DNA of 64,000 bases, from assembly GCF_988242995.1 (NCBI RefSeq), contig NZ_OZ547043.1; one strand, given 5' to 3'. The position numbers were made by a program, and so were the translations under genes. This document shows positions 2,811 to 5,240 of the stretch, piece by piece. Under the pieces are notes generated by a model. It had not been told where the DNA came from and did no database searches. It saw nothing but the letters and a program-made list of their open reading frames with translations. The first letter of the stretch is position 1, and each line of letters starts with the position of its first letter.

Positions 2811-5240
2811 TTACGCCTGAACAGCTGGCTGATCAAACGCCGTTAACTTCGGTGCATTGCCCGTATATTTTTCGATATACACCAACGCTGAGTTACCGGC
2901 ACAGGCATTTGCCAGCTGCGAGCTGGGGATATCCGCCGTTAACACGTTCGCACTGCCGTTTTTACACAAGCCATTTTCCAGATCTGGCCATGCACCTTCA
3001 TGCACGCATACCACGCCTTTTTTGATCCCGTCAGTCACCACCGCGCCTGTCAAAATCTGACCACGTTTGTTCCAGACACGCACCAGATCGCCATTCGCAA
3101 TACTAAAGCGTGCAGCATCTTCGGTGTGAATAGTGATTGGTTCACGATCTGCAACCGCATATTTTTTACGCAGTTCCGCATAGTTAAGCTGACTATGTAA
3201 ACGGTGTGCCGGATGTGCGGTCAGAAGCTGCAACTGCTTCTCGTCGGCGGTACCCTTCCACTCATCAGGCGCAAGCCAGGTTGGGTGTGCCGGGCAATCC
3301 TTATAGCCAAATTTTTCCAGCGTTTTGGAGTAAATCTCAATTTTGCCGCTTGGCGTACCCAGCGCATTTTTCACCGGATCGGCGCGGAAATCACCATAAC
3401 GAACGTACTGTTCGTTCTTCTCGCTGCGGCGCATTTCGATCAGTTTATTTTGCTGCCAGAAGGCATTAAACATCGGCATAGTCACGCGTTGCGCACGGGC
3501 ACCTTTCTGAGCGGCATCATAGAAAAATTTCAGCCACGCCATTTCATCTTTACCTTCGGTATAGATCTCTTTTCCGCCAGGTTTCAGTAATTCCGCAAGA
3601 TCGGCAAACACATCAAAATCGTTTCGCGCTTCAAATTGCGGAGCGACAGCCTGCTTCATCGGCACAATATGCTGGTTGCTGTAATCACCGGTCATCGTCA
3701 AGTCATTGCGCTCAAACGATGTGGTGATCGGTAATACGATATCTGCATGTTTAGCAGCTGCGGTCCAGTAGCATTCAGAAACGACGATCATCTCCGGTTT
3801 CTGCCATGCTTTAATCAGACGATTAGTATCCTGGTGATGGGTAAAGTTACCGCCACCCGCCCACCAGATCATTTTGATATTCGGATACGTTTGCTCTTTA
3901 CCGTTATGCTGATATTTGCCGCCAGGATTTTCCAGCGCATCGACGATACGGGCAACAGGAATCGCCGTCATTCCGCCATCATCAGCGGCCTCGCTGGCCT
4001 GTCCGGCAATCGCCGCAGACATTTCCGGCAGCACGCCGCCAACACGTGTCGGGTTGCCACCATTGGAGTAATGATAAGAGAAACCAAAACCGCCGCCCGG
4101 TGTACCAATCTGCCCTAACATCGCCGCCAGCGTCACCAGCATCCAGTGTTTCTGTTCACCATATTGCTGGCGCTGAATTCCCCAGCCTGCCATCAGCATT
4201 GTGCGATTCGCCGCCATCAGTTCAGCGAGTTTGACTATCTGCGCTTCCGGTACGCCAGTAATTTCCGCCGCCCAGGCCGCGCTCTTCGGAGTATTATCGC
4301 TCTTACCTGTCAGATATTCTTCAAACTGCGGATACCCGGTGGTGTATTTTTCAAGGAACACTTTATCGTGTTTGCCTTGTGTCATCAGGGTATGCGCAAT
4401 CCCTAACATCAGTGCCACGTCGGTGCCCATATTCGGCGCGATCCAGGTGGCATTATCGCCAAAGAACTCAATGGTTTCGGAGCGGATAGGATCAATGGCA
4501 ATCACTGGTTTGCCAGATTTTTTCAGCTGATGGAAGTATTCCAGCCCTTACTCATCGGTACTGCTCCAGGCAATTTTTAAGGTATTCAGCGGGTTCATCC
4601 CCCACAGCACCACAACCTGGCTGTTTTCCAGAATCAGCGGCCAGGAGGTCTGCTGTTCATACACCTCTACAGAACCGACCACATGCGGCATGATCACCTG
4701 TGCTGCCCCGGTTGAATAATCGCCGCTATGCCCGGAATAACCGCCCGCGAGGTTCATATAACGTTGCAGTAAGGTTTGCGCTTTATGCAACACGCCAGAA
4801 GAGCGCCAGCCGTAAGATCCGGCAAAAATGGCCGATGGTCCGTTAGCTTTACGAATACGATCGTGTTGCTCATGAATCAGTTTTAATGCTTGTTCCCAGC
4901 TCACCTGTACATAGGTATCTTCGCCTCGACCTTTCGCCGGTTGCAGTGGATTATCGAGATAGCTTTTTCTCACCATCGGATGCTGAATACGCGCCGTGGT
5001 GTGTACCTGATCCGCCGCCGTAGACTGTAAGGAGTTCGGTATGGTTTTCGCCAGCGCGCCTGTCGAAGAAACAATCTTGCCGTCCTTCACTTCTACGTTC
5101 ATCGCTCCCCAGCGTCCCGCGGTGAGGATTTTACCGCCCTTCTCTTCTGCCCATGCGGGTAGCGGTGCTGCCGATGTCACCACCAGCGCTCCAGCGGCAA
5201 TACCGCTGTGTTTAATAAATTCACGTCTTGTTAATGTCAT
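2811..5240 (-). pseudogene. torZ: TMAO reductase TorZ (BisZ), periplasmic molybdoenzyme, interrupted by an in-frame TAA stop (minus-strand codon at 4548-4550)
   Basis: ORFs 4548..5258 and 2811..4505 are in the same frame; 14 sense codons plus one TAA lie between them; combined length 809 codons; twin-arginine signal ([10 protein letters not shown]...AWA) at N-terminus. Confidence 0.75.

Follow-up and report, generated by a model that had tools for sequence, protein, structure and literature searches.

An ochre stop at codon 231 of torZ: a known strain-level nonsense allele of Escherichia coli, shared with ETEC H10407 and predicted to have lost function

The DNA analysed here, hereafter called the window, is a stretch of 64,000 nucleotides in which the torYZ operon is located between cmoAB and cutC-yecM-argS, as in other E. 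coli. The torZ gene is the last gene of this operon and is interrupted by an in-frame stop codon; cmoB is convergent to torZ, and torY lies 24 bp upstream of torZ on the same strand. The features of the locus are listed below, with positions counted from the first letter of the window.

5265..6365, minus strand: torY, intact, encoding a 366-aa membrane c-type cytochrome of the NapC/NirT/TorC-like type (RefSeq torY; ORF list)
2811..5240, minus strand: predicted torZ pseudogene, coding region of TorZ (a periplasmic bis-MGD S-/N-oxide reductase), its translation being interrupted at codon 231
5148..5240, minus strand: region of the twin-arginine signal peptide, with the motif T-R-R-E-F-I-K and an A-x-A end read from the translation; the cleavage site is a predicted one
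4548..5240, minus strand: truncated N-terminal ORF of 230 aa plus stop, which covers the Tat signal and domain I and runs into the molybdopterin domain, past the Mo-ligand serine
4713..4715, minus strand: codon of Ser176 (GDYSTGA), the predicted molybdenum ligand; the motif is identical to that of HiMtsZ (PDB 7l5i) around Ser187
4548..4550, minus strand: premature TAA stop at codon 231, derived from CAA (Gln231) by C>T at torZ nt 691
2811..4547, minus strand: region past the stop, 578 sense codons, out of translation with the N-terminus and including the GTG ORF 2811..4505
3102..3104, minus strand: lineage-private missense change G713S (GGT>AGT, torZ nt 2137), inside Molydop_binding and past the stop

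The reading frame was established by translation of the minus strand. The region 2811-5258, translated in a single frame, contains one internal stop, in the context ACC GAT GAG TAA GGG CTG GAA, where TAA corresponds to window positions 4550-4548. An earlier note on this DNA had described two minus-strand ORFs of the same frame separated by 14 sense codons and a TAA, and both are present in the mechanically generated ORF list: 4548..5258 (236 aa, opening with TTG) and 2811..4505 (564 aa, opening with GTG), with the 14 sense codons at 4547-4506 between the TAA and the GTG at 4505. The first of these ORFs was taken by the note as the N-terminal part of the gene; it exists as an ORF, but its TTG at 5258 is not the biological start. 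The true torZ start is the ATG at 5240, which is used in the RefSeq annotation of every related genome inspected. From this ATG the gene comprises 2,430 nt (809 codons and a terminal stop), and the read-through protein has the length of intact TorZ (809 aa), as the note had proposed. Counted in the same way the stop is codon 231, in agreement with the predicted 230-aa product that keeps its twin-arginine motif (TRREFIK). The sense codon replaced, for which several single-step neighbours of TAA had been put forward, is CAA (Gln) in the aligned intact E. coli torZ genes, among them those of E. coli C, ATCC 8739 and BE2-5, and strain 120899 has C at nt 691; the C>T change at this nucleotide is a G>A change at window position 4550 on the plus strand. 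The view that the lesion affects one codon, with neither frameshift nor deletion, also holds, the gene having this single internal stop and differing from the intact torZ of BE2-5 at 2 of 2,430 bases. Because of this near identity, and because both halves match TorZ across their full length, the split pattern is not a product of chance.

In order to place the protein in an enzyme family, a repaired TorZ was used, in which the stop at codon 231 was replaced by Gln. The repaired protein scored 1263.5 bits with the NCBIfam model TIGR00509 (bisC_fam, MGD-containing S/N-oxide reductases), above the cut-off of 1017.55, and stayed under both TorA equivalog cut-offs (854.6 against 909, and 814.7 against 1465). 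Pfam assigned Molybdopterin_N to residues 40-80, Molybdopterin to 84-550 and Molydop_binding to 670-779. Additionally, residues 37-806 were aligned with the structure of Haemophilus influenzae MtsZ (7l5i, E = 7e-301), and the segment with the Mo-ligand serine is identical between TorZ (Ser176) and MtsZ (Ser187), Ser187 being the molybdenum ligand of MtsZ (PMC8166771). The repaired protein therefore has what is found in the family: the TIGR00509 score, the three domains, the Mo-ligand serine, the Tat motif and the operon with torY. What the window torZ lacks is an uninterrupted frame for the full enzyme, owing to the TAA at codon 231. As far as can be judged from sequence, it is a member of the family by descent, as a pseudogene, and not a functional enzyme gene.

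Two known proteins are useful for comparison. TorZ (BisZ) of E. coli in its intact form, which is the catalytic subunit of TorYZ, is represented in BE2-5 by WP_000176796.1, whose gene shares 2,428 of 2,430 bases with the window torZ. Both have the same Tat motif, three Pfam domains, Mo-ligand serine motif and torY partner; the window gene differs by the stop at codon 231 and G713S only, and the 809-aa enzyme cannot be produced from it. MtsZ has the fold family and the context of the active-site serine in common with TorZ, but it is an intact enzyme that reduces methionine sulfoxide and is of relevance to virulence (PMC5122715, PMC8166771), whereas the gene in the window belongs to the related TorZ group and is an E. 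coli orthologue in truncated form.

We conclude that the window torZ is very probably a loss-of-function allele, a pseudogene generated by one C>T transition. The change of Gln231 (CAA) into an ochre stop (TAA) would end translation after 230 residues. The resulting fragment would keep the Tat signal, domain I and the Mo-ligand Ser176, and would be without about 70% of the molybdopterin-binding fold and without the whole C-terminal dinucleotide-binding domain; because these parts are missing, it should be unable to hold the bis-MGD cofactor. The stop is located inside the main molybdopterin domain (Pfam Molybdopterin 84-550), and the Ser176 codon, which lies upstream of the stop, is thus parted from most of the cofactor-binding fold. 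As regards the downstream part, no Shine-Dalgarno-like sequence was seen upstream of the GTG at 4505 when the sequence (AAATCTGGCAAACCAGTG) was read, and neither a signal peptide nor a Mo-ligand serine was found in the 564-aa ORF by translation and alignment with MtsZ. Since a ribosome-binding site, an export signal and a Mo ligand are all missing, this ORF should be neither made nor active. By analogy with the four-domain architecture of the enzyme family (PMC8166771), neither of the two pieces would be able to form an active enzyme.

The remainder of the operon appears to be unaffected. Positions 5241-6752 of the window are identical to those of BE2-5, whose torZ is intact. The best NCBIfam matches of torY are TorC and NapC/NirT, both under the cut-off, and torY is now an orphan. 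As torZ ends the operon and cmoB converges on it in the gene map, no polar effect on other genes would be expected. The loss of TorZ, with torY staying intact, is probably near-neutral, since expression of TorYZ is poor and further S-/N-oxide reductases are present in E. coli. As summarised in PMC5122715 from Gon et al. [quoted passage not shown] A modest induction of torZ by HOCl, copper and paraquat has been reported, and the seven Mo-containing S-/N-oxide reductases of E. coli look functionally redundant (PMC12096835).

The occurrence of the stop allele, hereafter Q231*, was analyzed with a 61-nt query centred on the stop, for which exact matches were sought in 5,414 complete E. coli records. 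The stop-bearing 61-mer was found in five of them (~0.1%), namely RM14721 (dog), ETEC H10407, SEC470 (with a record as long as that of H10407), EC23-1020 (urine, China) and LR-24 (human, Ecuador), and the other 5,409 differ. In the four carriers whose annotation was inspected (H10407, RM14721, LR-24 and EC23-1020), NCBI/RefSeq describes the locus as a torZ pseudogene with an internal stop; that of H10407 is ETEC_RS10365 in NC_017633.1, and the coordinates are equivalent in H10407 and RM14721. The earlier note had allowed that reference torZ genes might carry the same stop and be annotated as two genes. This is not the case: nearly all records differ at the 61-mer, and the carriers are annotated with one pseudogene. 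A sense codon in the orthologues and a stop confined to a minority lineage are what marks a nonsense pseudogene, and on these sequence grounds torZ of the window would be one.

Beyond the complete genomes, the exact 230-aa product was found on 308 public contigs of a 15-billion-protein collection, in some cases under the name 'hypothetical protein'. The exact 564-aa downstream ORF with G713S was found on 45 contigs (NCBI, ENA, Logan). Among the assemblies compared, two independent ones have no difference from the window, the draft GCA_013851005.1 over 7.5 kb and SRR13674911 (Logan assembly) over 4.8 kb; both also carry the G713S allele, whereas all seven of the comparison genomes have G at torZ nt 2137, where the window has A. 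The Q231* allele therefore circulates, and it is common among draft assemblies. It is already public as a pseudogene, including that of the prototype ETEC strain H10407, and it is a known allele at the level of strains, which has been maintained and has spread within a phylogroup-A-like lineage to which H10407 belongs. In the literature library searched, no paper on the Q231* allele of torZ was found.

The flanking sequences were compared in order to relate the carriers to each other. A single flanking haplotype is common to the window, H10407, RM14721 and LR-24, the window differing from the other three by 12-15 SNPs over 30-39 kb; these three also have the CAA>TAA change of codon 231 and the gene coordinates of the window. 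Derived SNPs common to RM14721 and LR-24 indicate that these two are sisters. The stop-free version of the window haplotype is found in BE2-5, which shows seven differences in the first 30 kb, the stop being one of them. The window is distinguished by the private G713S change (position 3104), a private synonymous change in flhC (25652) and the lack of an island at tRNA-Leu, whereas the torZ gene of H10407 has acquired P185S and G632D, and that of LR-24 has acquired Q470*. Because it differs from H10407, RM14721 and LR-24 by 12-15 SNPs and in island content, the window represents a separate strain of their allele lineage.

The fifth carrier with known flanks, EC23-1020, has a different background. 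Its flank shows 479 mismatches to the window over 49 kb, i.e. a haplotype that is roughly 1% divergent, and the SNPs nearest the stop lie 80 bp and 49 bp away on its two sides. When the EC23-1020 torZ is compared with the intact torZ of strain 120899, nt 691 is the sole difference, and the same apparently applies to the comparison with many others. As the haplotype is divergent and the gene equals an intact allele except for nt 691, Q231* appears to have arisen at least twice, the second time on the unrelated EC23-1020 haplotype; gene conversion over 128 bp or less is a less likely explanation. An ordinary recombination tract from an H10407-like lineage into EC23-1020 was also considered and is not supported, given the SNPs 80 and 49 bp away and a gene that is the intact allele bar nt 691. 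P0030 was considered as a third background of Q231*, its 564-aa ORF having the same start on another haplotype, and was rejected; the lesion behind this ORF is a frameshift (A6>A5), with CAA kept at codon 231.

This frameshift is one of several further torZ lesions. It affects an A6 run (CTGAAAAAATCT) seven codons past the stop site, at torZ codons 238-240 (equivalent to window ~4521-4529), and was found on nine contigs in which codon 231 is CAA; the downstream ORF of the A5 form uses the same GTG start. A truncated TorZ that ends after residue 220 was found on 40 contigs, Shigella sonnei entries ending at this residue too, and frameshifted products that end near residues 178 and 200 were found among protein clusters from long contigs. 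These inactivating alleles of E. coli and Shigella also truncate TorZ in its first ~250 residues, but they do so at other sites and on other haplotypes. The other lesions are independent events and not the Q231* allele, and torZ has thus been inactivated repeatedly in E. coli and Shigella.

Within the stop-bearing clade, later mutations have accumulated. All four of the further torZ changes are protein-altering: G713S in the window, P185S and G632D in H10407, and Q470* in LR-24, the last being a second in-frame stop at torZ nt 1408. As for their density, 4 of 19 events fall in torZ where 1.8 were expected, which is not significant relative to the flanking DNA (binomial P = 0.095). The pattern of these later mutations is suggestive of a dead gene, and the excess in density is itself only suggestive. 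The sister isolate of the window, GCA_958319605.1, carries an extra torZ substitution (equivalent to window 5023), and its torY has 363 aa instead of 366, through a change equivalent to window 5276.

Explanations other than a lost enzyme have to be weighed against these data. The stop is one base away from the common allele, as it would be if a sequencing or assembly error had obscured an intact gene. The probability of such an error is negligible, as the same allele is found in five complete-genome records from different laboratories, the 230-aa product on 308 contigs and the ORF with G713S on 45, and as no base differs from the window in the stretches of about 4.8-7.5 kb compared in GCA_013851005.1 and SRR13674911; because of this recurrence a base-calling artefact was excluded. 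Moreover, the change is a substitution, unlike the typical homopolymer-indel error. It is also very improbable that TorZ activity is kept by readthrough, a suppressor tRNA, programmed recoding or a split enzyme, even though the remaining frame is nearly intact, with one missense change, and neither torY nor the upstream region has changed. In E. coli, TAA is not known to serve for recoding, and it is recognised by both release factors. The codon was indeed read as TAA, which is not a selenocysteine codon, as pointed out in the earlier note, and recoding of the selenocysteine type would call for UGA with a SECIS; nor is the stop conserved, 5,409 of the 5,414 records having another 61-mer. No stable RNA structure was detected near the stop when 111 nt were compared with shuffled controls (z = +0.32), and no suppressor tRNA was found within the 64-kb window, which contains only the normal Leu(taa), Cys(gca) and Gly(gcc) tRNAs. 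Readthrough is further opposed by the second stop of LR-24 at codon 470 and by the other later changes, all of them non-synonymous; these suggest, without proving it, that the downstream frame of torZ is no longer under selection. As to a split enzyme, its C-terminal half would have to act without a Tat signal and without the Mo-ligand serine.

A further question is whether the loss of TorZ reflects simple neutral decay. It could instead have been positively selected in some host-associated niches, or nt 691 could be a mutational hotspot, as might be suspected from the presence of Q231* on two unrelated backgrounds (EC23-1020 with its 479 mismatches over 49 kb, and a torZ equal to that of 120899 except at nt 691) and from the several other independent lesions of the gene. 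We consider this unlikely. Two hits at one of many single-step nonsense sites, among thousands of genomes, are compatible with chance in a weakly constrained gene, and nt 691 is not part of a Dcm CCWGG motif. The allele is rare, at ~0.1% of the complete genomes, and EC23-1020 could owe it to a gene-conversion tract of at most 128 bp. Nevertheless, given that the identical stop seems to have arisen twice, the loss could be not purely neutral.

With torZ regarded as a nonsense pseudogene, the locus should be annotated with one torZ pseudogene and not with two hypothetical genes. Moreover, the single base of Q231* can be used to mark a lineage to which the reference ETEC strain H10407 belongs. 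The case is one more in which a weakly expressed, redundant respiratory enzyme is lost, and as such it will not surprise a specialist; the two independent origins proposed for Q231* are the only mildly unexpected result. Together with the other lesions of the gene, the recurrence of this allele could offer material for asking, at the level of populations, whether the loss of TorZ is neutral or selected.

Some minor observations were made elsewhere in the window. The window has ~711 bp (~49,367-50,077) that the closest complete genomes lack, inserted between the start of fliA and the stop of fliC (50,120). This DNA contains a tnpA ORF on the minus strand (49,476-49,934) for an IS200/IS605-family transposase (NF033573, 144 bits), and the insert shares 99.2% identity with IS200 copies at other places in E. 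coli; an IS200 insert at the fliC-fliA site was found in none of 5,426 complete genomes. At the tRNA-Leu/Cys/Gly cluster by yecA (window ~39,271-39,700), the window ceases to be syntenic with H10407 and RM14721 at 39,326, within tRNA-Leu(taa). The cargo at this site consists of IS66 and the MZA anti-phage system in H10407 and of SIR2 and restriction genes in RM14721, whereas the window, BE2-5 and EC23-1020 have no island there. From this gene content, the cluster looks like a variable hotspot for defence islands. Within the flagellar regulator genes, no IS element was found upstream of flhDC in the window. The private synonymous change in flhC is GGC>GGG at codon 142 (window 25,652), and the flhDC upstream region of H10407 (~26,590, upstream of flhD) has a 1-bp insertion relative to the window.
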